Source: a virus (Duplodnaviria; Caudoviricetes). Taken from it: DNA of 59,648 nucleotides. The position numbers and the translations under genes are program-made. The stretch spans positions 1 to 59,648 of the IMG/VR virus record IMGVR_UViG_3300025018_000011. The stretch is one strand, 5' to 3'. Below, piece by piece: positions 4,970 through 52,344 of this stretch; the stretch's first letter is position 1; each line of letters starts with the position of its first letter. The notes under the pieces are model-generated. The model searched no databases. It had not been told where the DNA came from and saw only the letters and a program-made list of their open reading frames with translations.

Positions 4970-7126
4970 TTAGAAATTCGTTATAATAATTCAAGGATTT
5001 CAATTAGCTCAATTAGTTCAATTAGGTCTTCATGAATATCAATTACTTAGTAATCATCAAGTTCATCATGAAATATTTATTGTAGAAGTATTTATATACG
5101 TATTTGAAAGTAAAAGTAAAATTACAACTCATCAATTTCAAGCTCATCATCATCACCCCCCTCATCAATTCGTATATGGGGATCATCCGTTTCAACCATT
5201 TCATCAAATAGCTTCTATCGTTCATAATGTTTGGATTATATTTGCTGATATAAATATATTACCTCAATTTCATCAAGCTCATCAACCTGCTCATCATGCT
5301 TCTGTTCATCAAGATTGATAACTATTTCATCAATTACCTCATGATGCTGTTCAACTAGATTTGATTGTTACTAGATCTATTAATCATAATATAATATATA
5401 ATAATATTAAATCATTACCTCATTGAAATACTGGTACTTGATTACTAATTCAAGCAATTGATACTGGATTAGTATTACCTCATCATTGTCAACCAGTTAC
5501 TCAATTAGAATTACTATATGAATTATAATTAGTTCATACTCATCATACAGATCATAATCAAAAACCTATTCATCATTTTCATCAACTTGCATATGTTGGT
5601 ATACTTCAAAGAGTTCAAGCATTTAATGCTGTAGCTCATACTCAACCTATAGTCCAAGTTCAATTTCATGTACCATTTCATCAATTGTTTCAGTTTCTTC
5701 TTATCGTTCAATTATTTGTTAATGTTCATCAAACAAATATTTTATATCAATTTGGGTTTAATACTATTCATGAATTAATTGTTAAATTATCGTAATACAT
5801 ATCTTTAGTTAAAGTTGTATTTACTGATATTGTAACATTTCAATCTATCTTAGATCAAGTTGGTACTTTAAAAATATTTCTCAATCAATATAATGATATA
5901 ATATTATTCATGTCTATTGATGTAGTTCATTTAGCTTTACCTATATATACTCTATTCTTTCTAAGACTTGTAGTTATTCATCAAGCTACTCATCATTCAA
6001 GAGATGAATCTAAATAGTAATCTGATCAATCTATAAGTCATGTATGGTTATTAGATATTTGATCTATATTTCATTTTATAAATTGTCATACTATTTTATT
6101 TTCAGTAGCTATTCATTTGAAATCAATTTTACTTTTATATCATGAATCTGCTTTATAAGCTTTATTATCTGATCCTAGATAGAAAACATTTCATTGTATT
6201 AAGTCTTCTCATACTTCAAATAATTGTGCTTTATCTACTTTTAAATCTAATTCTGTATCCATTTCTATTTGTGAATATACATTTAGATTATCTCTAGCTA
6301 CTTGCATATCTGTAAGCTCAATAAGATTATTTCATGAAAACATATCTCATATACCTGTCATAGCTACATATGAATCTCAATCCCATCTATATGATAATGA
6401 TTCACCTATTACTACATATAATATTCATAGTTCTCATACTACTGGAAATTCTCATATAGTTGCATATTCTTCTATTGCTGCAAATACTGCAGGTAAATAT
6501 TGAAATGGTATTTTTCATAATTCATCTAATGGTGCATAACCAGAAGCATTTAATAAGTCTTTAAATTTATGTTTTGTAATACTTGTTATATTTCATCATG
6601 CATCTACTACTATATCTGCTACTGGATATAATGTAGCATCATATGCTTGGCTTATAAAATAATCATTATTCTTAATGTATACATAATTAGTATCATTAGG
6701 ATCTAGAACTTTATCTTCTAATGGTACAGATGTGTCTACATCGTTTATAGTGATCAGAGTATTGTTTATGTAAAACTTACCACCTTTTATTATAACATCG
6801 CTCACAGACTTTTTAAATATGTATGGAGCTTGTTCTGAGTCTAGCATGTAGTTAAATATATCTACACTATTTGCTAGTACAATAGAACTACCAATTATAT
6901 GTTGTAATGGATTATCTCTATTAACTCAATATACGAATATAGAATTACCTACTACTCTATGATAGAATATAGTTTCTTCTTTTAAGTTTACTCATGGTTC
7001 AATTGTTACGAACCCTAAACTAGAAATAGGGGCAATAGAAAGTTTAATTTCTATTTCCCCTGTTGAAGTATTTTGTAGTGTTGCATTAAGTGTTCACTTA
7101 TATCATTTTTGTAATTTTAATTCCAT
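4970..7126 (-). CDS. Tail fibre/adhesin with glycine-rich C-terminus, 718 aa
   Basis: N-terminal ~190 aa paralogous to 1766..4957; YAPLDELGKIP motif; C-terminal GGNGG/GGGGGGAG runs. Confidence 0.78.
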
Positions 7127-18681: not shown

Positions 18682-19032
18682 TTAAAAATTAAGCTTATCT
18701 CATTTAGCTGGAATATTATTAAATATAGCTACTTGAGTCTTTTTATCTGATAAGTCGAATCAATATATTTTTAATAACACTTTTGCTGCTTCTAATATAG
18801 TTTTAAAGTCTGGTGACTCATATCATTTATTATTTAATATATATGCTTTTTCTAATACATAATTTAATTTATCAGCTATGAATGACATATTCATTCATTT
18901 ATTTGATAATGCTTGAGCTAGCTCTTGCTTTAGCTCATTAAAGTTTTTTGGATCTAAAGGAACCACTTCGTTTAGAGGTGGTTCATTATTAGTTAAATCC
19001 TTTTTATTTTGTATTATTATTTGCTTATTCAT
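18682..19032 (-). CDS. Putative terminase small subunit, 116 aa
   Basis: Directly upstream of terL; helical ILEAAKVLLKIYG motif. Confidence 0.55.
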
Positions 19033-22000
19033 AATTAAATGGTTTATCTGACAATAATCATTTACTTGCTTTTGGAATTCTATTAGGTGCTAACTTCCTT
19101 TTTAGATTTTTTACTTTCCTTTTTGGCTTAAGTATAATAGTTCTTTTCCTTTGTTTTGCAAGTTCTCTTTTATTTCATCAAGCCTTTATTATATTAGTTC
19201 AAAATAATTCTGGCATCATCATTTCTATTTTAGCTTTTTGATATTCTTGCATTATAGGTGTTTTGAAATAATTAATAGCTCATCATTGAGGATATCCTCT
19301 CATTGATTCTCATACATAATTTCAAGGAGTATTAGATATATATCAAATTTTATTTGGTATGAAATCTTTTAATGGTTGAAATTGTTTTGAGAAGTTTGGT
19401 CTAGCATCATTAAATCATGCAGATTTTCAATTTGAAAATATTCTATTAGGATAATACTTTTTACTATATCATCATTTTGTTTGTTGAGAGTTAACTATGT
19501 CTTTTAAAATACTAGTAGCATCATATTCAACTGATTTAACTGAAGTATCATATATCCAGTTTGCAATAATTTTCTTAGTATTATAACTTAATCCTTCAAA
19601 TCTTTTATCATCTTTTAATAATCCATAACTCGCTTTATCCATTCACAACATTGCTGCTGCCTTTTTAGCTAACTTTGTTTTTGGATCTTGTGAACTATTT
19701 TCAATATCAATTAATGTTTTAATTATTAATTGTCATACTGTTTCATCGTTTCAATTAAATCATGCATTTAAAGTAGAGAACCTAGTTGTTAATACTCATA
19801 CTGAAGTATCTCATCTTTGTAGATTTCTTGTAGCTAAATATTCATTTGCTAACATTCTATTTGCTTCTTTAATTATTTTACTATCTCTATATGTATTTTC
19901 TAATTGAGAACTTAAATCTTTTTGATTATATTTCATTTCTAATTCTATAACTTTATGAACTGATGTTGCATCCATATTAAGGAAGTCAGCATGTTCCATT
20001 AAAGCTTGTCTCTTAATTACATTTTGTTGATATGTAGTTAACCATGGTTTACCTTGTTCATCATATTGTCATAATTCTTTTGTTAAAGCTTTAAACAATT
20101 TAGATTGTTTCGAATAAATAGCATATGCATTAATTTGTCCTGCTCAAATATTTCAACCGAACTCAGCTAGTGCTTGAAGTTTTAGAAATCATTTTGGATA
20201 TTCTGATGGTGCGTTAATTACTTTATCGAAATCTAATCACTCTAATTCCATTTTTCTTTTTAACTCAGTAACTACTACATCATCTAACATTGTTAGTCTT
20301 TGTACTGTAGTTTCATCACTATCTAAATCTCAATACTTATATAATCATCTACCTTTAATGTCTAGTTCTCTTGTGTAATCATATGCTACATCATTGTATA
20401 ATGTTGCAATAGCTTTTTGTTGGTCATCAGTTAGATCATCTGGATTTTTTCAAAGTAACTTTCAAAGATTATATTGATTTCAATCAATGTTTGTTATTCA
20501 CTTATTTGTCATAAGTTGTTTTAATCAATCTCTTTTATACGCTTCTTCTATTATCTTTTGAACTGCTCTTGATGTTACAGAGAATTCTCATGTTTCTAAT
20601 TTAAACCGATCAACAATCATATTTGAAACTGACATCATGAATCAAGTATTTTGAAAATTTGCGAATTGCATTCATTTCATTTTTTCTTCAAATATATCAT
20701 CTTCACTAGTATTACCTCATAATCACATTAATCATATATTTGTTTTATCTGTAATTGTTCAATATGAATCATTCATTGCTTCAAATCATATATATCTCAT
20801 ATAAGAATCATTCATACTATTGATAGAGTCTGCAATTGATTTAGCTGCCAACATTGTTGTTTCAACTATGTTTTCTGATTCATCTGCATGTTTGTATGCA
20901 TCAATAGCTCAAGCTAACATTTTTGGAACTACAGCTAAAGTTCTTGTATATCTTTTTAATAATTCATATGAAGTGTATTGTATTGCTTTAGATGTATCTC
21001 AAAATCTATTTGCTATCTCAGAACTTTCCATTATTTGTCATAATAAAATTTCTCTAGATACAAGTACGTTATTAAATGCTTTCATGAAATCCTCTGATGC
21101 TCATAGATCATTTGGATCTCTTTCATATTTTTCAGTCTTCATATATAGTCATAATGCATTATTTGACATGTAAAGAAGTGAACTATTGTAAGATAACCAG
21201 TTAGACATTTCTGATTTAAATCATTTAAAATCTCAATCTCTTAAATATTTTCATGCTCTTAAGAATGATAATTGATTGTCCACATATTGAGCTGTATTAT
21301 GAAATCACCATCCATTTAGATATCATACTGCTGACATAAATATTCTTGGCATAACATATTTTCATTCATCTCAATATATATCCATAGTATTCAATAATGT
21401 TTTTCTGTGTAATTGAGATGATGATACAACTCATCCTCAAGTCTTAGCATAGAATGTTCTAGTTTGAGTACTTATGAAATTCTTAATATCTTGCATATGC
21501 CACCCCATTGCAATTCTATCCTCTATAAACTTTGGTAAATCTTTTACTTCTATTCATATAGTATTTGTGAATTCTATTAATGCTGCTCTTTTACGTATTC
21601 ATTCTAATGGTGCATCCCAAAATGTTAATGGACTCATGAAAAAACTTTCTACATATTTTCAAAATCTATTGTAATCTTTTCAAGTGAACTCTGACATTTT
21701 ATCAAATGGTATAGTTATTAATCTTGATAGAGTATTCATTAATCAAGTTTGTGATATCTCACTATCATATCAAACTGATAATCTAATTAAATCTTCTGAT
21801 TCTAATAATCAATATTTTTTTAACATTGCTTCAGCTTCAGATAATTGATTTTTATGCATTGCTATTCTAGCCATGATTTGTACGTAGTTTGGTAATAATT
21901 GTACGAATCACATTATTTGTCATTTTTGATGAGTTAATGTTGATACTAATCAATATCAAAATAGATAATGTAGAGCATTGAAAGCATTAAAAATTCATTC

Positions 22001-25000
22001 TGTTTTACCTCATCTAACTGGGTATAGAGTATTTGTAAGTATAGATGCATCCCTATTTGATATTCAAGTAGTTTTTAATTTATCTAATAGATTAGTTCTA
22101 TTTAATAATCAATTAGTTCTTAATGCAAATGTATAATCTGATTTTACTGATTCAATTAAATCTTTAAATAATGTATCTGATTTAGTATCTATATATTCTT
22201 TTGCAATAGTAATTTCATTTAAACTTCATTTAGTTGTTGATTCTAATTTATTTATAATTACTAATGATGGTTCTATAATTTGTTCTCTATATTTTTGTAT
22301 AGCATCAGTGAATAGTTTATTAGATTTTCAATCAAATAATGGTAATCAACTTACTGAATCTACATTCATTCAACTAATTTCATCTAATATTTTATCAGTA
22401 TTTACTGTAAGAATATATCAGTCTGGAGTTTGTTTTATTGATGATGTAAATACTTTATCAATACTTTTCATAAATGGTTCAGCTTGATCTTTTCTTAAGT
22501 TAAATTCTTTTTTTAGTAGTTTACTAATAGCAACGAAATTATCTTTTAAATCCTTTCATAAACTTTTTGAAGCAAATTCATTAGTTAATTTAGATACCAT
22601 ATTAATTCTTTCCATAAGTAATGGATTATATTTATTTAGTATGTCTGCTAGTACTAATTTTCAAAATCATTTTCTAAGTGTAGCTAATTTACTATGTTGA
22701 TTTAATGTCTCTTCTAATGCATCTCTTGTTATCTCTGGACTAAAATCTATTCTAGGTATAAACTCTCATTGAACTTCAGTGAAATCTCTTATTGTATCAG
22801 AGTCTATCATTTTTGTAGTAAAGTCTTCTACTGTTTCACTTTGTTTCAATTCTATTTTTTCTATTTCTTCTTTTCTAATTTCAATTTGATTTACTATATC
22901 ATCAATTTCAGAATCAAGTCTTCATTCAGAATCATTTAAAATTAGATGTAACTCTTCTATCTCTTTATTGATAATTCAAATATCAGAAATACTTCTTTGT
23001 TCTTGTATATCTTTTGAATATTTATTCATAAATGTTTTTAGATTTTCTCTATTAGCAGCATCAGAATATTTAATAAATTCTATCTTTTCTTTTGCTAATA
23101 ATAAATCAACTATTTGTGAATTTCAATCAGACAATGCATATAATGCAAACATATTTCTAGTAGCGTAATCTTCTAATAATGCTTTATCAACTATTGATAT
23201 AGCTTCATGTCATTTTATTCAAGATTCTTTTAGAGTATTATACTCTGTTACTAATTTATTTAATGTATCGTTCTTATATCATTTAGATTCTTCTTTGAAA
23301 AAATTCTTTAAATCTAGTTTAGATTCTTTTTCTAAGTATCTTTTTCAATTTAATAGCTCTTTAGCTTTACTTACTATCTTATTTAAGAAGACTTTATCTT
23401 CTTCTTTTGCTACTTTTTTAATAGATATGTTATCAAGTATAAATCATAGATCATTTGTTATGTTTATCTTTTGAATATCTGGTATATATTTCTTAATAAA
23501 ATATTCATACAGATCTCATTTAATTCATAATTTTCATGAACTATATTTATTTAAAGTAAATTTATCTAGAAATGCTAATTTAGATATATCTCATTTATCT
23601 ATTACATCATTTGCTTTATATGATGTAGATAATGGTACAAATATTTCATCATGGAATTTTTTAAATCAAGCTCCAGATGGATCATCTATTACTAAGTTAT
23701 ATAAATCTCTTACCCAGTTGCTAGGGAACTCGCTCTTTCAAGACTTAGCAAAGTCTAATGCTATTTGTAATATTGAAGCTGCTTCTTGGTCAAATAAATC
23801 ATCTCATTCTTTAAATTTATATCTTCTTAAATCTAATGTAGATATCTCTTTTTTCCCATAATATATTGTTGATTCAATATTTTTATCTATATTTTTTAAT
23901 AATCTCATAGTTCTAATTCATGCAGATATTAATCATACACTTTTCTTAGCTTCTAATGAAACCATTCTTGCTCTATATAAATTATACTCTGGTTTAGTTT
24001 TGTTTACTTGTTTTGTTGTGATATGTTTATTTCTAATATTATTAAGCTTATCTAATAATTCTAGATTAGTTAATCATACTGGTTCTCATAGAGCTGCCTT
24101 AGCTAATACGTTTCATTTTTTAGAATGTGCTGATACCATAAATAAATGATCTCAGTCAAAGTCTCATTCTTTTTTAATGAATACTGCATATGGACTCATG
24201 ATAACACTATGTTTATCTATGCTTGAATATTTTTTATATAACTCAGAATCAACTGGTAATTTTTCTGCTAACTTTATTTTGTATACTCAAAGATTATATT
24301 TTGATGCTACTGGATATCTATAACCTACTATTTCAAAATCTTTATGTTTTATTTTTTCTCTTATTCTTAGATATTCATCACTATCTTTATCTAATTTAGA
24401 TAATTGTAAACGTAAATCATCTTCTATATCTTTTATGATTTTATTATCTTGAGAAAGTATTATCTCGCTATTTTTTAATAAAGGATCAACTTCTTGCATA
24501 AATACAGTTTCTCACTTTGTTGGTCATTTATTAATTAGTGTTTCTATACTTCATAAGAAATCATTAGAGTATGCTCATAATAATGTATCAGAATATGCTC
24601 CTACATCACTTTGGGCAGCTTTATAATTTGAAATGATATCTTGTATCTCTTGAGTAGTTTTATTCTTGTAAAGGGAATTAAACCTGTCTGTAGTTCAAAT
24701 TGGCTCTACTATAGTTTTAAAATATAATTCATCTATTTGTGACTTCATTATATTTGCTATAGCTTCTTGATGTTCTAATGGTAATCAATTAATTATTTGT
24801 AATGCTACTGATTGTTCTTCTTTTATTTCATGTGCATCAGATGAGGCATTTTTAAAGTCTTGTGTAGTAGTTCATTTAACTTCTCATATAGCTTTATATT
24901 CTCTTCAATTAATAATAATTGTTTTAGGTGAGCTATATTTTGTCATTTGTGAATCAAGCTTCAAAGATCATTCTCAAATAGCTACTGCATAGTTTTCCTC

Positions 25001-28000
25001 AACTCAATCTATAATAAATGAGCTTTTTGATTTATTAAATAAAGTTTTACCTCAATAAATTTTTCAATCTTTTAATCAATAGAAATGATCTTTAAACGCT
25101 GTAGTATCTTTTTTATCTAATCATTTAATCTCATTACGTAATCTCCATAAGTCTTTTGACGCCCATGATGTACCATCATTGAAATCTTTTAAGAATATAT
25201 TATCTAGATATGATTTAACTTCAGATATATTTTTTGGTAAACCAGACATTATGTCTTCATATATTTCTTTAGAAACCTCTCAGCTTATTGCATCTTTAAT
25301 TTCTTCTAAGTTATTACTTTCTTTAATTAAGGTTTTAAGTTTTTGTGTAAAATTATTTACTTCTTGTAAGATATAAGTTTTGATAGGAATATTTACATTA
25401 TCAAACGTATTGTAATTAGACATATTAAATGTTTCTCTTTTTGCTATAACATCTGCAGTCAATCATTCATATCATAATCAATCTCAATATATTTTTTGAT
25501 ATTCATCTTGTTTCGCTAAATAAGATTTTTTACTATCTCAAAAATTATATTTTTGTAAGTATGCATCCTTATCTCAGAATGTTCACATTATTGCTTCTCA
25601 TTTTTCTAATCAAAGTTCTTTTCTTATTTTATCTCTATATGGTGCTAGTATTTTTTTGAATTCTAATGTTTCAAATATTTTTCATTCTACATCTATGTTT
25701 CAAATTTTGTATGAAGCATTCTCTCATTCAATAGCATGAAATATTATATCTGCTTTTTGAACATCATTTAGTGCAATTAGTTCTTCTCAAGATGAAGTGT
25801 ATACTTTATTTTTTTCAAATACATCATCTATTAATTTACTAAGTAATAATGGAGACTTATCTGTAGTTGATACATTGATTGTTGATATTACATCAATTCA
25901 TGATATCTTAATAAATCATATTTTATCTCACATTATTTTTTTCATATCCTCTATCCTAATAACACGATCTTCATATATTCAATCTGTTGATGTAGATATA
26001 TTTTTCTTATAAGTTACCCATTTGTCAGTTTTTTTATCCTTAAATGAATATTGTTTTTCTGATTTAATTATGTTTTTAATCTTTATATTATTTTCTTTTA
26101 ATGCAATTCTTTTGAAACTTTCATATATATTAAAATCTTTTATAGCTAATTCTATTAACTCATCTTTTACATTAACTATCTTTAATCAGTCTATTGCTTT
26201 AATTTCTATGTCTTTTAATGTATCATTTAAAAACTTTCATATAATTTTTCAAAACTCTCATCTCTTTTTAGCTCATATTATTTCATCTGGATTATTTCAC
26301 GAATAATATAATGAGTTTATAAATTCTTTAAACTTCCCATTAGTTTCGAATAAATGATTAACATCTTTACTTGTTCATTCAAAATGTTTATTTAATCAAT
26401 CTAATATAATATTATCAGATGTATCATATATTCATTTCTTAGATGTCATTTCATTTATTAATACTCTTATCGGATTATTTTTTAATGTATATTCTTTTTC
26501 ATAAATTCAAGTTCATAGATTCATTTTAGCTACTATGTCTGATATTATTTTTTCTTCATCAACCCATATCGTATCTTTAAATTTACTATTGTTTAATGAA
26601 ATACTTGTTTTGATATGATTTCTAATTTTTTCAGAAACAGTTATATCATTCTCAAGTTCTTTTAATAAATCATATTTAGTTTGGAAGTCTTTAACTTCAA
26701 CTATTATTTTTATTCTAGCTACTGATTGTTCAAATTCATCTTGTGATAAAGAATTTTTTAATGCTATATTTTCATGCATTCTATCTAATTGATCTTGATA
26801 TGAAATTATATCTGATAATTTAGATTGTTTCTCATTCATAATCGCATTATCTACAATTGTATTTATTTTGTCATATATATCTTGACCATAAAAATAACTG
26901 TCTGTTTTTTTTCTAAATTCTTCTTCAGTCATTAATAGATTTTTTTCTACTTTAACTAATTGAGCTTCTTTAATAACTCTATCTTGTTTAATTTTATCTG
27001 TCAACTCTTTTGTGGATTTATAATTTCTTTCAGATTGTTTAAGATTATTAATTGTTTCTATTAATGTTTCTCTATTAACTTTATTCCTAAGCATTATTCT
27101 TTCAAAATCAGCAGTTATCAATTTATCAGTATGATCTATTTCAGATTGTTTTAATAAATCTTTCTTCTTTGCTAATTCTTGGAAAGCATTTTCATCTAGT
27201 AATATCTTTTTTAGATATTCCATTTTCATATCTTTATTACCTTTCAGTATTAATTTTTCTACAGCATTAAAGTTTTTTGATATTCTATGTGTAGCATTTT
27301 TAATAACTGTACCAATAAAAGGATTTGACTCATATCAGAAAAGCTTAACTATGTCTAGTACTAATTTTTCTATAGATGCAACTTTTTCTACTCATTCTCA
27401 TAGATTATCCTTTAAAAATAAAGACTCTCTTACTATTTGTTTTACTACTCAAACATCAATGTTTCAATCTAATCTTATTACATTTTGATATTTTCATGCT
27501 GATTCTATCGCATCTAATTTCATTACTCAATCAGTATAATCTATTTTTCAATCTATTACTTTAGAATTTTTTAATATATCTCTAAGTACTGTTATTGTTT
27601 TATTTGTATAATGCCCGAAGCTTTCTTTTCAAATAGATTCAAACATATATCCTATAGATGAATCTAATAATTTTTTTCATGGTAATAAATATTTAACTAT
27701 GTTTCTTCATTCAGATAAATCTAATGGGACATCCTCTACTTTTGATAATGGATCTCATTTTTTATATACTTCTGGAAGAGACCCATATGCGAAAACAAAT
27801 AATGAATCTTCATCTTTTACTGCTTGTTTAATAGCATCTATTGTTAAATTCTTATTTCATAAATTCATTTTAGATACATTGTCTCCAAAAATCTTTTGTA
27901 GTTCTTGCATTAAGAAATCCAGTTCTCATTCAATGTAATTTTTAGATGGAGTACTTACTATTCATTTACCATCAGAACTTTGAGATAATCAAGTTACTAA

Positions 28001-30688
28001 TTGTTTGAATTCAGTAGATAATCTTTGTGCGTTATATGATACATTATCAATTGGTAATTTTAATGTATTAGATAAATATTCTTCAGCATCTCTATATACT
28101 TGTTTACTTTTTTTAACAACATTACTTAATCCAGATTCTTTTATTAAATATGTTCAAGCGTCTTTTCTTATCTTTAATCAGTCTACTTCTTTTTTAGTTA
28201 AATCAATAAGTCATTCTTTATATAAATCTGCTGTAGTTTTTCATTTAGCTTGAGCTATTTTATCAAGATCATTTAGTGAGAACTTTAATTCTACTCATGA
28301 TAATGCATTAGTTACAGATACAGTTCATCTATATTTTAATGAACCATATCATTCATTTAATAAAGATATTTGTTCAGATATAGAATCATATAAGTCATCG
28401 TATATTTTTGGATTAGCCGTTTTGATATTTAATAAATCTTGTTTAAATTTATTTATAATATCAACTGGAACGTTTTTTAATTTAGATCATTCTAATAAAG
28501 AATCTCAAGTTACCCATTTATTTAAGTTATCTATTTTCTTTTCAAATGATGATAGATATAAATCTTTTGTTTTTTTATCTAAGTCTCAAAATAATCATTT
28601 TTCACCTGCGTTAAATAAATCATTTATTTCTTTTTGAACTAAAGTAAATGGATTACTAGTTTTTACTATATGTCAGTCTGCAGTAAATAATGTTTTAAGA
28701 TCATCTTTCTTCATTTTTTCTAGATTCGTTTTTACGAAATCATAGATCTCTCATTTATTAAAAAGACCATCAGCTACTTCTGGTTTTAAAGTTGTATTAT
28801 ATAATGGTATAACTTCATCTCTTAATAATTCTTTAGTTGTTTTTGTATCAAATGATTTTCAATTTCTAGTTATTCATTGTTCATTTAATACTCTTGTAAA
28901 TTCTGATACTGCGTTATCTCTTATTTTTTTAGAATCTCACCAGATAAAATCATTTAGTATATCATGTTTAGTATATGAACCTGCTTTTCATATTCATACA
29001 ATGTTAGCATCAAAAAATAAATCTGTGAACATATTAAATTCTTCTTGAGCTTTTGTACTTATTTCTCACATCGCCATATCGATTGCTGCATTTGGTGCTA
29101 TACCAGTTACTATTGATTCACCTGCAAACTTTCAAGCTCTTACTCATTGATTTAATGTAAATAAAGTTGATTGTCCTGCAATACTTCATTTTATTGCTGA
29201 TGATGCTTTATTTAATGCTCATACTTCTTTAATAAATTCAGCACCTAATTTCATTGCAGTTTTTTTTGCTACTCATCAAGCTTTTGATATTCAAGGTCAT
29301 ACTCATAGAGATAACATTGTATTTAATACATCTCAAGGATTATAATACATAGCATGTAAGAAAGTAGAACCAGTTATATTGTCTGCATTTATAATAGAAT
29401 TTCATACTCTTAGTGCAACCACATCATCTCTTGCTGATTGTGTTCAAAGGTTTAATGCTAAACCAGTTGCATTCATTGTACTTTCTATGAAATTATAAAC
29501 TCAATTTAAATTTCTTCAATCACTTATTGCATTTTTCATTTGTCTACTATTTATAGACATTTGTTGCATGTTATCAAAAATCTTTTTATGTTTTACATTT
29601 GCTTTGTCTTCTTCAGATAAAGAATTGAACGCATTTATTGCTGCTTGTTTTTCTATACTATCTGTATCAAGAGTATTTTTATTATTCTTTTTTAATATTA
29701 ACTCTTGTCTAAATTGATTAATATAAAATTTCTTCATTGATTCATTTAAAGTTTTATATTCTCAATTTATTCTAGTCTCATCTCAAGGCTCAGCTTCAGA
29801 TAATGCTGACAATCTTTTATATTCTAAGTCTGAAAATAACTCTATCATCGTATCTTTTTTAGATGAAAGAGATTTATCGGCTAGTTTATCTTTTAAAAAT
29901 GATTGATCTCATAAACGCATATCAACTTCTTCAGCTGCTGTTGTCATTAATTTTTGTTGTACCAATAAAGATCATTCGAATTTCTTTCATCAAATATTTG
30001 TAATATCTTCTCATTCAGATACTTCAATATTTTCTTTTGTATATCTTTCGAAATCTTTATATGAATCTTGTAATTCTTTTTGTTTTAATGCTATTGTTTG
30101 TCATTCTATTGTATTAAATTCATCTTGTTCTTTTTGTATCTTTTTTAATTGTGCTGCAGAATATTCTTGTTGAGCTAATAATGTAGCTTCTTCATCAGAT
30201 ATTCATTGTAATTTATATTTCTCTATAGAACTAACAAAAGAATTTAATGTAGTATATTTAGGATTATTTAAAATCTCTTTCTCTACATTTCAATATTTTT
30301 CTTGTAAAGAATTATATACAGCTTTCTTCTCATCATAATTTTGTTTAAATAAATCTCTATTTACTCATTTTTTATATTTAGTATCATCGATACTAAAAAG
30401 CCCTGTAGTATCTCATACCTTATCCATAAATCATTCTAATTTTTTTGGAGTAAGTATTTTTACTAAAGGTCACATTATTCATTTCGCTTTTTGTAATCAA
30501 GACTCTTCTTTAATAGCTTTAATGTTTAATGAATCATCTTCATTTAAATTAATGTATTCTTTTGGTTTAGAAATTGCTTGGTATAATTGTTGCCCACTCT
30601 TATATGTATTTTGTGAGAACTCTTGGAATCATTCTTTGACATCACCTACGACATCTTTAGCTTTATTAAATATATCTTCTACTGACAT
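19025..30688 (-). CDS. Giant (3,887 aa) putative virion protein containing a two-barrel (crAss-like) DNA-dependent RNA polymerase core
   Basis: All five minus-strand track fragments share one frame; no TAA/TAG found in the stretches read. Motifs NDGTSW..FKDHFYG..GGKTLF..EGSLK, then GYRYP and EGDFDGDHLF (24149-24166). Confidence 0.82.
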
Positions 30689-31823: not shown

Positions 31824-33680
31824 TTATGCATAAGTCAAATTATTTCATTCTCTTTTAATTTGCATGTCTGATTTAATATTTGTATACACTCAAGTATCTG
31901 TATCATAATTTAATTCTAACACTCATGTAAATCATTCACGGTTTTTAGTTATTATAAGTTCAGTTAATGCATCTTCTTTCATTTTATCTCTATGAACATG
32001 GATGATTTTATTTGGAACTTGCGCTATTGCTACTGCATCTTTAAACGATTCATCATCTGGCCTAGCTCATCAAATCTTTTTATAGTGTGCTACAAGCATA
32101 ATAAAAATATTATATACTCTACAGAATGAATTTATTTGTTGCATTATTTGTTCAAGCATTTCATCCTTTCTATCTTTTTTATCTACATCAAATTTAAAAT
32201 AATGTAGATGATCTATTATTATTACGTTAACTCATTTGTTAACAAAGTCTTGTATTAGTGCTTCCATTTTTGAAATGTGCATAACTCATGTAGTATTATT
32301 AACTACATCATAAATATTCTTATTATCTGATAAAAGATTTCATTTAGCTTCTGTTAATTCTATTTTTAATTGAGCTTGATTATCTATATCGTTTATCATA
32401 AATTTATATTTAGGATAATTAGTTAATCATTTTCTTTTCCTTGCTTTTCATACAGCGTAGTATAATTCCTCTTTACGCTTACTTTGTTGTCTGTCTTCTA
32501 ATGTAAACCTACCAACTTTAAATCATTGCCTAGAAACGTTATTAGATATGTTATTTACAAATGTTGATTTTCAACTTCATGTTAATCATCATACTACTAC
32601 TAATTCTCATCATAGGATATATCATAGTTTATTATCTAGTTCTTTATATCACCATGATATAGCTTTTGTTGGATCTGTATTTAATAATTCATCTAGTCAT
32701 TCATCTAGTAAAGATTGATAACTTCTTATCTCGTAATCTTTTTTAATCTTAGATTGTATGAATACTGAATCAGTAAATATTACTTCTATTGTTCATTCTC
32801 AATATCAACTAAGTTTTACAAAGTCATTTATATCTTTTACTCAATCTTCTTTACTTGCTAATAAAGATATATCAAATAATTTGTAATCTATATTGGCGAA
32901 TTTTTCTAATACCATTTTTCATGCTTCATCATTATCTGGGATTATATAAATCTCATATCAAGCATTAAACATTTTTTCTATTATCTCTATTCCATCATTA
33001 GATGATTTAAGTCATACTGTATTTGTGTAGTATTGACGAAGTGTATACCAGTCAAATAATCATTCAACTACTATGATTCTTTTGTCTGTCTTATTTATTC
33101 AGTGCATAAATACTCATTTACTAAGGGTATTTTTTTCTATCCTAAATCTTTGTTGTGCAGTTGGATCTGGATTTCTACTTTGTAAAGTAATATAATCTCA
33201 TTCAGTATTTGTTATAGGACTAGATATCCATCAGTTATTATTCCTAGAAAAATCTTTTATCTTATCATAGTCTATTGCTCTTGATGCTAAATATGAAATA
33301 TGTTCTACAGATAAAGGTTGTAAAGATTCCCATTTCTTTGTTATCCTATTAATAATCTCTTTATAATTTTCAGTTCTGCTTTCTTCCATTGTTTGTATTG
33401 AATTAATGTCTAACTTATAATGTTTACTAAACCACTCTAATGTTTGCTTATCATTAAATCAATGTAATTTCTTTACGAAGTCATATGGATTTCATGATGC
33501 TCTATGTTTATTTGGATTGAAATCATTTACTATATTTTCACTTAATGAAGCTTTCCATCAATTTGTTTCTTCTCAATGTTCCCATAAACATAATACATCT
33601 CATGAACGAGTAAATTTAATTCAAGTTAAACTTAATATACCCTCTATCGGTATTTTTTTTATTGTTTCGAATATTTCCAT
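31824..33680 (-). CDS. DNA primase-helicase (TOPRIM + DnaB-like), 618 aa
   Basis: TOPRIM VVEGLFD, PDNDEAG, KDIND; helicase GLTGSGKS, IIIDHLH, LVAH, ITKNREG. Confidence 0.92.
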
Positions 33681-34585
33681 TATTTAAATTTCTTAGGCTT
33701 TATAAATGTTAAGAATGTTGTTTTTAAATTTTTAATTTCTCTATTACTTCTAACACACCAATCTATCATTGTCTCTATTTTTGAAAATAATAGATCAGAT
33801 CAATCATATCATGTAGCTTCTGTTTGTTCATCAAACTCTTTTCTTCTTCTTTTTAATTCTTCTTTCCGATCATCTCAATAATATAATACCATTCTAGATT
33901 CTATTATTGTTCTTCAACAATCAAATACTTTAAAGTATTCTTCATCAGTCATTAGTTCATCTGGCATTGTTGCTGGCAACTTTTTTTTGAATCCCGATAA
34001 ATGAATTAATGCATGTTCTATAAAGTATTCCTCAATCTCTTTTAAATTTAACTTTGAAAAGTTTTGTTCGCTCATTATTTTTTTCTCTACTAATATAGAT
34101 AATAAATCTCTTATTGTTTTTGTTCAATGTTTTAAAGAACTAACAGGAGTTTTTATTTCTTTACTAGTAATAGAAGAAAAATCTTCAACAACCGTTTTTG
34201 TATTATTCTCTGTATTATTAAATGTATTATTATCTTTTAACTTTTGTTGTATAGGGTCTTTAATAAAAGTTAAAGGGGGTATATAACAAATGTTAAAGGG
34301 GGGTATATAACAAATGTTAAGTACCCTCTTTAATATTTCTTGAGTACCCTCCTTGTATATTATATTAGATTTTACAAATCATTTAGTTATTAAACTTTTA
34401 ATAACTAAAGATACTCTTGTAGTAGATATTCAAAAGAAATCTGCAAAATATTTATTTGACGCATAACATCATTTATCATTATCTAAACTATCTATTTCTA
34501 CAAAGAATATTTTTTCTTGTATAGTTAATTCTTTATTTAACCATATTTCTTTAGGTATCCATATTCATTTAAAATCTCTTTCCAT
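33680..34585 (-). CDS. Phage replication initiator/replisome organiser (N-terminal wHTH), 301 aa
   Basis: MERDFKGIWIPKEIWLNKELT..EIDSLDN..GCYASNKYFADFFGIS; internal iterons; TAATG-coupled to primase-helicase. Confidence 0.85.
34269..34320. repeat. Iteron-like tandem repeat, probable replication origin
   Basis: gttaaaggggg(g)tatataacaaat x2 plus a partial unit inside the initiator gene, as in lambda O-type origins. Confidence 0.65.
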
Positions 34586-34608
34586 ATTTAATTTTTAATC
34601 AAATAAAA

Positions 34609-34711
34609 AACACTAAGACGATTGTGAGACCCGTCTTAATGTTAGTGCTGTATGGTATTATTCTCTGATACTCTACCCAAAGGGTCTCACTACTTTAAGT
34701 AGAATATCAGA
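34609..34711 (-). ncRNA. Two-hairpin kissing-loop leader upstream of replication initiator
   Basis: Loops gtgagacc (34624-31) and ggtctcac (34683-90) are complementary; stem mismatches become G-U pairs on the minus strand. Confidence 0.6.
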
Positions 34712-34751
34712 ATATACATATATCAAAAAATGTTTTTCATACAACAAGAGC

Positions 34752-34829
34752 ATTCTATTCAGAATTTAATATATGTCAAATTCTTTATAAGTAAAAAGAA
34801 TTTGACTTCTTTTTATTATTTATTAGTAT
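34752..34829. promoter_or_regulatory. Divergent sigma70-like promoters: TTGACA-N16-TAGAAT (minus) and TTGACT-N16-TAGTAT (plus)
   Basis: Consensus-like boxes between the initiator and HU genes. Confidence 0.6.
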
Positions 34830-34857
34830 AAGGATACTTTATCCATAAAACAATTGT

Positions 34858-35151
34858 ATGAATATAAAAAGATTAATAGAGATAGTACACGATAGTTTTC
34901 CTCGTAATGAAAGAATTACTAAGAAACAAGTCTCTACTATTTTAGAGAGATTACTAGATACAATCTCAGATGAAATAATAAAAGAAAATACAGTAAATCT
35001 TTACTGATTCGGTTCTTTTACTATTTGATACAGACCTGCTAGACTTGGTATAAATCCCCAAACTCTAGAACCTTTACAATTACCTGCTTCTAAATCAATT
35101 AAATTTAAAGCATCCACTAGAACTAAAGAATCTCTTAATAAAAAGAATTAA
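34858..35151 (+). CDS. HU/IHF-family DNA-binding protein, 97 aa
   Basis: VNLYGFGSF..RPARLGINPQTLEPLQLPASKSIKFKAS; first G encoded by TGA. Confidence 0.92.
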
Positions 35152-35171
35152 TTTTTATTGAGCATATAAAG

Positions 35172-35207
35172 ATTTATTTAACACATACTTATTTATTTAA
35201 CACATAC
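35172..35207 (+). repeat. 17-bp direct repeat atttatttaacacatac x2
   Basis: Seen at 35172 and 35191, just upstream of ATG 35213. Confidence 0.7.
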
Positions 35208-35212
35208 AGAAT

Positions 35213-35776
35213 ATGACATGAAATAATATTCCAACTCTTACTCCAGAAGAACAATCTAAAAACATCGTCTTAGAGAGCTCTAATGAAAGTGTTGCTATAG
35301 ATAACACTGAATCACCTACTGAATCTTTACAAAGTGAAAATAATACCCTTAACGTTGAAGTGGCTAATTCTAATAAAAATTGATTATCTAATCTAGATCA
35401 ATCTACTAGAGAACTTACTGCTGAAGAACAAGCCATAGAAGTAGCTAAATCTGAAAAAGCTACTGCTGATTTTATCCAAAATTCATTCATACAAGAATGA
35501 GCTGATATTTCTGCAGACTTTAATAAATCTATTAAAAGAATGATAGATGTTAATATTCAAGATTCTATTATTAAATATCTTTCTTCTTACTTTAATGAAT
35601 CATTTATCTCAATGAACGATGCACTTAAAGCCTTAGAAAATAATAACCTACACTTAAACGTTCTTCCATCTAAACTTCAATTCTGAAAATATAAATTCAA
35701 AATTGAAATCCTCTCTAAAATAGATTCTAAAGAATTTAACATAGATATTAACGCTGATCTTAATATATCAGAATAA
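35213..35776 (+). CDS. Hypothetical acidic protein, 187 aa
   Basis: MTGNNIPTLTPEEQ...; open in code 25; followed by a hairpin at 35791-35816. Confidence 0.75.
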
Positions 35777-36084
35777 TATCATATAATATTAAAACATCCT
35801 CTCCAAGATGTTTTTTTATTTCCCCTATTTTATACTACTTGACATCTCATTCTACTTTTCTTCCAGCCCGTGAACTAAGTTAATCAATTGGCTTAACAAT
35901 GCAAAACCTATTTTTACTCAAATGTTGTATAATATAGTTTCATATAACATTTATCCCTAAAAAAATACCTCTCTTATCTAGTGTATTTAAAAAAAAATAT
36001 GAAACTTAGGTGGTGTACTTACCTTATACTATACTACTGGGTCATGTAGTACCCCTGCATCTACGCCAACTTCGACGTCTATTT

Positions 36085-36110: not shown

Positions 36111-36470
36111 TGTTTTATTTATTTGTTTTGTTTTATTTATTTATATGTGGTTTGTTTTTATTGTTTTGTTTTTTGTGTTTTGTTTTTATTGTTTTATTGT
36201 TTTTGTTTTTGTGTTTTTGTTGTTTGTTTTGTTGTATTTGATTGTTTTGTTTTTTGTGTTTTAATATATTGTTTTTTGGTTTTTGAATTGTTGTTTTTTG
36301 TTTTGTGTATACGGAATTTGGGGTTTTTGTTTTGTCGTTTAGTGAGTACAGTTTTTTGTTTTATGGTTTTTGGAATTGTCGTTTTTTGTTTTGTGTTAGG
36401 GTTTTTGTTTTGTAAGTAGTTGTTTGTTGTTGTTTTTTTGTTTTTATTTTGTTTTTTATATGTTTATATA
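36111..36470. other. T/G-rich low-complexity, strand-skewed non-coding tract
   Basis: Almost only T, G and some A on the + strand; C nearly absent. Confidence 0.85.
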
Positions 36471-36924
36471 TTGTTTATAGATATATTTATATAATCTATA
36501 ATGTATATAGTAGTAATTGTCTTATATGATAATACAGTGTTTTATCATATAAGACATTATATATATATTGGCGAAAGGAAACTATAGGAGTTTCTTTTCT
36601 GTTTGTCTGTGAGACAATCTCTTATCTTCCTTGTCTATGTTTAATAGATAATCTTTTAATAAGATTAATGAAATTTTCCCCCCTTTGTTTCTTTAATAGC
36701 ATTTTATACTTTGTGAAAGTATAACAAACATTGTGTTGTTCATTGCCACTGATAGTGTACGGCAAGTATTCGTGTCCCGTTATTAATCGCTTCTTATCCT
36801 ATCTGAGTACGGTTATGCTAGGCATCTATGTTTAGATACTTGTATTTTAGGTTTTGTTTTTATTTGGGGGAATTACCTATATATGATATAGATTTGGGGG
36901 AATTATTGTCCTAAGACAAAATTA

Positions 36925-51255: not shown

Positions 51256-52344
51256 TTAAAATGGTACTTGATTTATTGTAACTTCATTACGAACTGCTTG
51301 AGTTTTAGGATTCTCAAATACTTCAGTAACATCAGTTTCTTGTATAGCTTCATCTATCATTCATTTAACTTCTTGATTAGTTTCAAATTGAAAATTAACT
51401 ATAGCATTAGTTCATTCTACTCTAACTGGTATTGGTGATTTCATTCATCCAAATCTTTCAATGAAGTATGCATCTCTAACTTCTTTAATGTATTGAACAT
51501 CATCTAAGTTATTTTTTCTCATTCATGTTAATCAATCAAATTTAAACTCAGCTATATTAAAATCTTTACCACTATAATTTTTAGTAACTAGATTTAAACT
51601 TAAGTCTAATTGATCTGGTGATACACTTTTTAATGTTTTACCTGTAGCATTATTCCAAGCTTTAACTCATTCAATATTAATTGAATGCATCAATGTACCA
51701 GATTCTGGAACAACTTGTTCTCAAGCTTTATAAGTAACTCCTAATGATGAGTTTTTTACATACATCATAAAGTAGTCTCAATCATATTGGCCTCAATTAA
51801 ATTGTCAGAATATAAGTGTTTGATCTTTTATCTCAGTAGATTTATATTTAGTATTATCAGCTTTCTTCCTCCATGTAAAGAATGGATTAATATTCCCATT
51901 GATATTAGGTGAAGTTAACATTGTAAATAAATCTTCTCTAGTAAAGAATTGGGGTTTGCTACTCATATTTTTAAATCATATTACATCAGTCTTTCTACTA
52001 TATTGTGAGTATTCATTAGTGTAAAAGAATTGAGTTACTTGTTCTCATTTCTCATTTGTTAATGTATCTCATAATTCATTTAGTAAAGTAACTTTACCAC
52101 TCATTACTTTAGCAACAGCTAGTAATCAGAATTTAAATGGTTCTATCATTTTATCTTCTAAAGTATGAGCTTCTTTTAACCTAAATAATCACGCCTTAGA
52201 CATGTCCATAATATCTCACTTAGAGTAATCTGGATTGTATATAGATACTTTATGTAATCAATCATAGACACTTGGTGTTCTTCAAGCAACTTGAGAACCT
52301 CTTTCCAACATTGATTCATCCATTTTCGCAATAGCGTTTTCCAT
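51256..52344 (-). CDS. Putative ssDNA-binding/annealing protein, 362 aa
   Basis: Acidic tail ending VPF*; next to exonuclease; terminator at 51233-51252. Confidence 0.55.

Follow-up and report, generated by a model that had tools for sequence, protein, structure and literature searches.

Background

Several plasmids and phages control their replication genes through the leader of the messenger RNA. In the rep leaders of IncI-alpha, IncB and IncL/M plasmids, an upstream hairpin pairs through its loop with a distant sequence beside the rep ribosome-binding site and so controls synthesis of the initiator; the pairing needs translation of a leader peptide and is blocked by an antisense RNA. The plasmids pT181 and pIP501 use a countertranscript, and in their rep leaders the 5' arm of a terminator can pair with a segment farther upstream. 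Among the phages, P1 and P7 differ by matched changes in the c4 RNA and its targets, and termination in P4 is Rho-dependent. An RNA processed from the P4 leader is described as pairing with two complementary sites of the same transcript, leading to premature termination before the replication genes, as outlined in PMC4825925. For the guanidine-IV RNA, the account in PMC11611296 describes an upstream loop that kisses the loop of a terminator hairpin and hinders completion of the terminator stem, giving read-through; the mechanism proposed there includes steric strain through the linker. The present analysis concerns a minus-strand RNA leader at positions 34,609 to 34,711 of the virus record IMGVR_UViG_3300025018_000011 (Caudoviricetes). 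The whole record, 59,648 bp and complete with direct terminal repeats, is referred to as the window. The leader precedes the gene of a replication initiator and contains two hairpins, hairpin 1 (HP1) and hairpin 2 (HP2), with complementary loops.

The two hairpins and their loop-loop pairing are supported as a selected feature of the sense-strand RNA by compensatory changes in relatives, by an excess of G·U pairs and by the adjacent promoter. A cis-regulatory role is most likely for such a feature. The leader is read here, with a probability of about 0.55, as a kissing-loop-controlled attenuator of the replication operon.

Results

The fold of the leader was analysed on both strands. The minus-strand RNA folded at -50.2 kcal/mol (z = -6.52), and none of 200 shuffled sequences was as good, compared with -30.5 kcal/mol (z = -2.61; 2/200 shuffles as good) for the plus strand. 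The Watson-Crick share of the arms on the plus strand is 79% for HP1 and 92% for HP2; because the stem mismatches are G·U pairs on the minus strand, the stems there are unbroken and better folded. A sequence-only reading had proposed the promoter, both hairpins and selection at the RNA level from these mismatches. All of the elements were present, and the strand difference in folding agrees with the proposal. HP1 (34664..34711, minus strand) is predicted to have a G·U-containing stem of 19 pairs in the minimum free energy structure and 20 in the centroid, with a 10-nt loop UAGUGAGACC at 34692-34683. HP2 (34609..34643, minus strand) is predicted as a terminator-like hairpin of 13 bp with a 9-nt loop and an energy of -14.1 kcal/mol. 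The U-tract UUUUUUAUUU (34599..34610, minus strand) lies directly 3' of HP2, and the distance from the end of HP2 to the initiator ATG at 34585 is 23 nt. The hairpins are separated in the predicted fold by a linker of about 19-20 nt (34644..34663, minus strand), of which the part 34654-34647 can, in the fold prediction, pair with 34745-34738.

The two loops are 100% complementary over 9 nt (GTGAGACCC/GGGTCTCAC), one nucleotide more than the 8 nt claimed before. The 5' partner is the HP1 loop segment GUGAGACCC (34682..34690, minus strand), and the 3' partner is the HP2 loop segment GGGUCUCAC of nnUCnnAC type (34624..34632, minus strand). The 8-mer GGTCTCAC has exactly two copies in the 59,648 bases, both in the leader, against an expectation of 0.22, and two or more copies were seen in 0/100 shuffles. 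When the interior of HP2 was shuffled at this locus, its match to the upstream leader gave p = 0.013. As a duplex the kissing helix was estimated at -18.8 kcal/mol, and pairing of the HP2 loop with codons 2-4 of the initiator at -6.8 kcal/mol (p = 0.05). The partner of the HP1 loop sits in the HP2 loop about 46 nt upstream of the ATG, away from the ribosome-binding site.

The promoter-like site TTGACA-16-TAGAAT (34752..34779, minus strand) matches the consensus at 11 of 12 positions and is the best of 18 such sites in 33500-36000; on this consensus match, the transcript would start near 34745. Only the quality and position of the promoter are informative, since the number of sites (18) equals the shuffle expectation of 17.7. 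On the plus strand, the window holds only 9/12 promoter-like sites, at chance frequency. A possible leader open reading frame (ORF) of 16 codons (MKNIFGYMYILIFYLK under code 25; 34690..34740, minus strand) begins after the predicted transcript start and has its UAG stop inside the HP1 loop. It is not conserved in relatives, and its relevance is doubtful.

The leaders of homologous initiators were then compared in a sample of 206 distinct 200-nt leaders, taken from DNA around initiator homologues in viral, metagenome and genome collections. Most of the 206 are without a leader structure of this type. A U-tract hairpin no more than 70 nt from the ATG was present in 35/206, and the simple terminators with 6-nt loops among these lie 42-50 nt upstream of the ATG and probably belong to the preceding gene. 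The other group of the 35 consists of 19 leaders, whose hairpins have an interior of at least 9 nt, a U-tract and an end no more than 30 nt from the ATG. Both counts come from a scan that replaced a first, strict terminator scan, by which members with large loops had been missed.

The interior matched the upstream leader better than shuffled interiors did (p < 0.05) in 6 of these 19 leaders. After identical interiors were removed, 15/17 interiors matched their own upstream leader over at least 7 nt, compared with 51/272 non-cognate pairs; for matches of at least 8 nt the figures were 6/17 and 13/272 (permutation p = 5e-5). A stricter two-hairpin detector, with loops complementary over at least 8 nt, returned 8/172 leaders against 8/860 dinucleotide shuffles. 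The pairing letters vary among the leader groups, with several distinct pairs seen. Positions were measured for 14 members: -83 to -149 for the upstream partner, and -34 to -65 for the one in the hairpin loop. Leaders with Bacteroidota-type promoters carry the element, as do a prophage-like locus of a Ruminococcus metagenome-assembled genome (L193) and the window phage, whose host reads TGA as glycine. Of the alignments of these leaders, A1 (MAFFT, 13 diverse leaders) was out of structural register and was excluded from the counts, and A2 placed L094 one column off.

Pairing of the HP2 loop with the start region was considered as a general feature and rejected: counted over 14 members, with L083 outside the count, it reached p <=0.05 in three (the window, L092 and L085) and was absent from the other 11. 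In two pairs of loci, L085/L086 and L082/L083, the word that pairs with the terminator-hairpin loop has an upstream copy and a second one right at the start or ribosome-binding region; because of this second copy, the terminator loop of these loci could alternate between two partners.

A subfamily from Bacteroidota phages provided the material for covariation. The search pattern was built from the loop tail and linker common to L087, L092 and L094, with the pairing letters left free, and it gave 114 loci in the viral collection. Among the 112 pattern sites that could be examined, the HP1 arms pair in 35. In 32 of these 35, a U-tract hairpin follows whose apical loop contains the reverse complement (7-8 nt) at a distance of 33-37 nt; two of the remaining three are identical sequences that pair through a U·G wobble, and the last is a chance match without a second hairpin. 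The pairing letters of the subfamily comprise at least 11 different 8-mers. In alignment A3 (MAFFT, 15 distinct members) the kissing helix is 100% paired, with four of its eight pairs changed on both sides and none on one side only. The covariation score was reached by 0/500 shuffles, and sliding the partners cut the pairing from 98.9% to 31.5-47.8%.

As a check on the complementarity filter, a covariance model (R1) was made of HP1 and the apical stem only, with the pseudoknot left out, and searched against the window with 199 initiator loci and against 100 pattern loci. It found five members that had never passed through the filter, and all five have complementary loops, with 8 pairs in L161 (including U·G), 7 in L096, 8 in L356, 6 in L260 and 8 in L413. 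The R1-guided alignment A4 has 25 rows, including four of the five unfiltered matches, the wobble case and one non-member (L468). All cells with letters in its kissing helix are paired, five of the eight pairs are compensatory, and two are U·G. Compensatory pairs were also found in HP1 (5/6), the apical stem (3/4) and the lower stem (10/11); all four helices covary. None of 500 shuffles reached any of the five measures, a statistic inflated by kinship of the sequences, and the slid controls were 35-52% paired against 91.6% observed. The loop complementarity, which the sequence-only reading had wanted checked in relatives, is kept in the subfamily by these compensatory changes. With the non-member dropped (24 rows), the stems contain 48 G·U and 4 A·C cells, in accordance with the strand preference noted in the window. 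In columns 70-73/105-108 of A4, which the search pattern left unconstrained, the terminator hairpin has an internal loop where UGAA faces GGAU in most rows; it could form tandem G·A pairs and serve as a kink or a protein site.

The TAnnTTTG box, which we take to be the Bacteroidota -7 promoter box, ends 3-7 nt before HP1 in 21/24 subfamily members, against 4/24 for a control interval. This position of the box would make HP1 the 5' end of the transcript in the subfamily, and with transcription starting at HP1 a leader peptide would have no room. An antisense promoter box was found in only 1/24 members, and none is conserved, which speaks against a countertranscript of the classical kind. The first genes behind the subfamily leaders code for an HTH_36 initiator (L478), a DnaD-like loader (L409), DUF6291 proteins (L394, L419, L421), a BT4734-type primase/helicase (L414) and a small ORF without assigned function. 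The element heads replication modules generally, beyond any single protein family. That the downstream replication families are unrelated argues for a mechanism at the level of RNA or polymerase and against autoregulation by the encoded protein. Near-identical leaders also stand before different genes in different contigs. The 6.9-kb viral contig L444 carries two leader copies on the same strand (532-630 and 5411-5509), 4.9 kb apart and with identical pairing letters, and it is the only one with two.

The terminator character of HP2 was assessed within the phage itself. A coding-strand scan of the whole genome revealed five distinct sites of a hairpin plus U-tract; four lie directly after gene ends and the fifth is HP2. 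Among the five, HP2 is the second strongest (-14.1 kcal/mol), has the largest loop and is the only one in a 5' leader. HP2, which had already been likened to a terminator, looks like those used at gene ends in the same phage and would be expected to act as one. Because the ATG comes about 10-25 nt past the U-tract, the genes behind such leaders depend on read-through.

The window copy was then placed in the class. It has the promoter, the 5' hairpin and the U-tract hairpin ending no more than 30 nt before the first gene; its apical loops are complementary over 9 nt, in the range of 6-9 nt; and its first gene belongs to a replication module (initiator, then primase-helicase). The HP1 loop of the window, with a G-C closing pair, 2 nt and GUnnGAnn, has the format of the apical loop of the subfamily terminator, and the nnUCnnAC type of its HP2 loop is the format of the subfamily HP1 loop. 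The loop types are exchanged between the hairpins relative to the subfamily, and the same was observed in L116. These two cases suggest that the helix matters more than which hairpin bears which strand. By these formats the window copy is related in design to the R1 subfamily; with no R1 match at E up to 10, it is not a member of that sequence family.

Cultured phages were examined as well. A blastn comparison of cultured phages with the subfamily motif and the window leader gave no match, and none of the six cultured phages with homologous initiators that were examined has the element. In five of the six, the initiator overlaps or abuts the upstream gene, so these have no leader. Bacteroides phage C3_41T2LP (L512; record positions 51361-51710) has a 350-nt gap before its helix-turn-helix gene, with a Bacteroidota-type promoter box and a different, branched fold. 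An internal loop of this gap could pair over 8 nt with a stretch located about 20 nt ahead of the ATG, and a U-tract hairpin is lacking.

The gene context agrees with a replication operon. The window has about 26% G+C, and nearly all of its genes are on the minus strand. The terminase large subunit and a Dda-like helicase were found in it, confirming the phage context. Long frames are open only when TGA is a sense codon. Under table 11 the region has no long ORFs, and that reading was rejected; table 4 was also rejected, as its frames are open but W falls where G is required, for example in the Walker A motif. The phage reads TGA as glycine (code 25), and so does its host, since the Walker A motif of the primase-helicase becomes GGLTGSGKST only under code 25. 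The replication initiator gene (33680..34585, minus strand; 301 aa, nine in-frame TGA read as Gly) matches Pfam HTH_36 at 4e-7 and the PHROG replication initiation protein at 3e-15, which bears out the earlier assignment of this gene. The next gene in the operon is a primase-helicase (31824..33680, minus strand; DnaB_C 5.5e-19, Toprim_2, phrog_239 3e-50). The same operon contains a giant ORF at 19025-30688 (minus strand) of 3,887 aa with 211 in-frame TGA. A search of the window for tRNA and tmRNA (transfer-messenger RNA) found none.

The leader lies in a gap of 272 bp between the initiator operon on the minus strand and a divergent, plus-strand gene for an HU-like protein. Two divergent promoter-like sites, with -35 boxes TTGACA at 34779-34774 (minus) and TTGACT at 34802-34807 (plus), are both overlapped in these boxes by an inverted repeat at 34775-34806 (12 bp, spacer of 8 nt). 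The repeat was scored as a plus-strand terminator and could equally be an operator common to the replication operon and the HU gene. The initiator gene itself contains, at 34308-34353, a tandem pair of direct repeats of 23 nt with 74% identity, which accounts for the peptide NICYIPP occurring twice; some initiator genes include their own origin, and the pair could be iteron-like in this sense. Near the replication module, the non-coding stretch 36118-36493 (about 375 bp) is made up of T/G-rich, degenerate tandem repeats with periods of 11, 14, 22, 29 and 45; there the G+C skew is reversed and assemblies break. This block is a candidate origin or other DNA-level site. DNA of the window phage is present in metagenome runs from groundwater, aquifer and hot spring. 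One metatranscriptome run contains 27% of the sampled words, and its single 253-nt contig, the only one from an RNA library on this region, corresponds to 34863-35115 in the HU-like gene alone; with a depth of 2.1, carry-over of DNA is possible.

Discussion

By the attenuator reading, the stretch would be the structured 5' leader of a replication operon comprising the initiator, the primase-helicase and the downstream genes. Transcription from 34779-34752 would make HP1 first and then the intrinsic-terminator hairpin HP2 with its U-tract. The apical loops of HP1 and HP2 would form a kissing helix of 8-9 bp, and this contact would set how much RNA polymerase passes HP2 into the replication genes. 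We infer that HP2 terminates and that the kissing helix alters the termination; by analogy with guanidine-IV, kissing that leads to read-through is slightly favoured.

The geometry was considered by simple arithmetic. Stacked coaxially, the 20 bp of HP1, the 8-9 bp of the kissing helix and the 13 bp of HP2 come to about 41 bp, or about 115 Å at 2.8 Å per pair, and the window linker of 19-20 nt spans at most about 115-125 Å and would be almost fully stretched by it. In the subfamily, about 30-33 stacked layers compare with linkers of 12-18 nt. Coexistence of the kissing helix with a terminator stem closed along its whole length would be marginal in the window and in the subfamily, so the two may be mutually exclusive; the arithmetic fits this without proving it.

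Several points count against the attenuator. At a complementarity of at least 6 nt the two-hairpin detector was barely enriched (46/172 leaders against 170/860 shuffles). Most rows of A3 and A4 had been pre-selected for complementarity, and their shuffle statistics carry the kinship of the sequences, so that the slid controls and the five unfiltered matches are the better controls. The subfamily model R1 gave no match to the window at E up to 10, and a primase-helicase search of viral contigs for kin of the window phage returned 0 relatives; as the window leader has no close relative, the covariation pertains to the class and one subfamily, not to the window copy. The steric case is arithmetic only, and a bent kissing complex could permit both structures. 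A kissing helix of 8-9 bp should, moreover, form without any ligand. For every member, the support for attenuation is drawn from sequence.

The main variant of the favoured reading, possible though unlikely in our estimate, is a self-antisense regulator acting in trans, of the P4 CI RNA or P1 c4 type. Transcripts stopped at HP2 would build up into a pool of stable small RNAs, about 100-145 nt long, whose loops are exposed, and these RNAs would kiss the nascent leaders of other genome copies, pre-empt the intramolecular contact and raise termination, giving control of dosage, timing or immunity of the replication genes. Promoter, two hairpins and terminator together have the anatomy of a small-RNA gene, with HP1 at the transcript 5' end in 21/24 members and the ATG so close behind the U-tract that the genes need read-through. 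The two copies in L444 with the same pairing letters and the near-identical leaders before different genes are also consistent with action in trans, and P4, as described in PMC4825925, offers a precedent in premature termination before replication genes via a processed leader RNA. The pairing letters vary at 5/8 positions in the manner of an address, but variation is just as great in the other helices, so drift accounts for it and selection for specificity need not be invoked. Both partners lie on one molecule, where intramolecular pairing should win unless sterically barred; only one locus has two copies, and the Rfam families C4 and IsrK were unmatched. A more elaborate form of this idea, tentative and somewhat less probable again, is that the terminated leader would be a protein-free, sense-sense copy-number or immunity RNA. 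Read-through RNAs would kiss internally, whereas terminated RNAs, unable to do so, would expose both loops, seize those of nascent leaders on other genome copies and make them terminate. Phages infecting several bacterial phyla, hosts with TGA = Gly included, would then fall into incompatibility or heteroimmunity groups, with the positions that vary in the 8-bp helix serving as the address code. We consider rather improbable a constitutive structural element without a switch, that is, a fixed partial terminator, an insulator or an RNA-stability element, in which the kissing helix merely compacts the fold or shields the 5' end of the mRNA or short RNA. A long kissing helix should indeed form unaided, all helices covary alike, and few conserved unpaired nucleotides for ligand binding are seen outside the pattern-selected subfamily; but a strong terminator directly before essential replication genes, with no space for a second promoter, calls for passage, and the constant position before unrelated replication modules suggests regulation.

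Translational control of the IncI-alpha/IncB type, in which the pseudoknot or the HP2-loop/start pairing would open or close the ribosome-binding site of the initiator, takes up the analogue named in the sequence-only reading, and it appears very unlikely. The weak pairing of the HP2 loop with codons 2-4, the three members at p <=0.05 and the second copy of the partner word at the start region in L085/L086 and L082/L083 speak for it. In the window, however, the start region is only a weak partner beside the kissing helix (-6.8 against -18.8 kcal/mol), such pairing is missing in 11/14 members, and the conserved partner is the upstream loop, lodged in the window in HP2 and not at the ribosome-binding site. 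Neither a leader peptide nor an antisense promoter (1/24) is conserved, and the U-tract is conserved, though a purely translational switch needs none. From that earlier interpretation a selected sense-strand RNA feature is retained, on the compensatory changes, the G·U excess and the upstream promoter; the IncI-type translational pseudoknot falls away, and 'attenuator' fits better. A feature of the DNA, either two inverted protein-binding sites (operator or origin) or a cruciform, is scarcely credible. Covariation alone cannot settle RNA against DNA, because inverted half-sites of one protein would likewise stay reverse-complementary on change, and the site does adjoin replication genes. What tells against DNA is the count of 48 G·U to 4 A·C stem cells, together with the U·G wobble in the kissing helix of three members (L425 = L490, L161); in a DNA duplex, or read from the opposite strand, these pairs would fail to match. 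The plus strand also folds far worse. In addition, the half-sites are about 50-60 bp apart, each in the loop of a separate hairpin that covaries, the motif stands before initiator families that are unrelated, and other candidate DNA sites are nearby in the palindrome 34775-34806 and the repeats 36118-36493.

The kissing-loop attenuator was compared with catalogued RNAs. The search of Rfam 15 suggested in the sequence-only reading was run on the window and relatives, and no matching family emerged. The C4 and IsrK models had no match at E up to 10 in 34300-35000 or at gathering score in the whole window, and a search of six loci, including four that bear the motif, gave none for them at E up to 1. 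The best Rfam match, to a plant miRNA hairpin, scored 21 bits where the gathering score is 90, which is nothing real. A search of the published literature at the level of titles and abstract openings found no description of the element. The motif may be among the 10,006 candidate structured RNAs from IMG/VR listed in PMC10690425. By its sequence features the element is probably an uncatalogued RNA gate on replication genes.

If this is true, many uncultured phages gate their entry into DNA replication by a small, protein-independent RNA that is absent from the RNA-family catalogues. The device would be compact (about 100-145 nt), modular before unrelated initiator families and equipped with a freely reprogrammable 8-bp contact, and these three properties would make it a testable model for loop-loop contacts acting on intrinsic terminators. 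Exclusion between phages, or the timing of replication, might also be determined by it. In genome annotation, the element would mark the starts of replication operons in phage genomes that are otherwise unannotatable.

Comparison with known systems

The IncI-alpha/IncB/IncL-M leaders share with the phage leaders an upstream hairpin loop in the leader of a replication gene that pairs with a distant partner; in the phage leaders that partner does not lie at the ribosome-binding site, and neither a conserved leader peptide nor a conserved antisense promoter was found. The likeness to pT181 and pIP501 is an intrinsic terminator in the leader as the controlled step. Unlike in those plasmids, the phage complementarity runs from loop to loop and stops short of the stems, and an antisense promoter box was seen in 1/24 members.

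The P4 CI RNA (seqA, seqC) and the P1/P7 c4 RNA resemble the phage leader in that a sense-strand leader RNA pairs within its own transcript ahead of replication genes. The CI RNA of P4 is excised from its transcript and has a target on either side, two in all, whereas the partners in the phage leader are the apical loops of adjacent hairpins, one of which would itself be an intrinsic terminator. Guanidine-IV (mepA) presents the same arrangement of an upstream hairpin loop kissing the loop of a terminator hairpin. Its kissing loop needs guanidine and conserved loop nucleotides and controls bacterial exporter genes. The phage leader has 8-9 Watson-Crick pairs with freely varying letters, a ligand pocket is not evident outside one subfamily, the downstream genes are replication genes in place of guanidine exporters or carboxylases, and without an Rfam match it does not belong to that family. 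Taken as working analogues, guanidine-IV and the P4 CI RNA are closer to the phage leader than the IncI/IncB systems.

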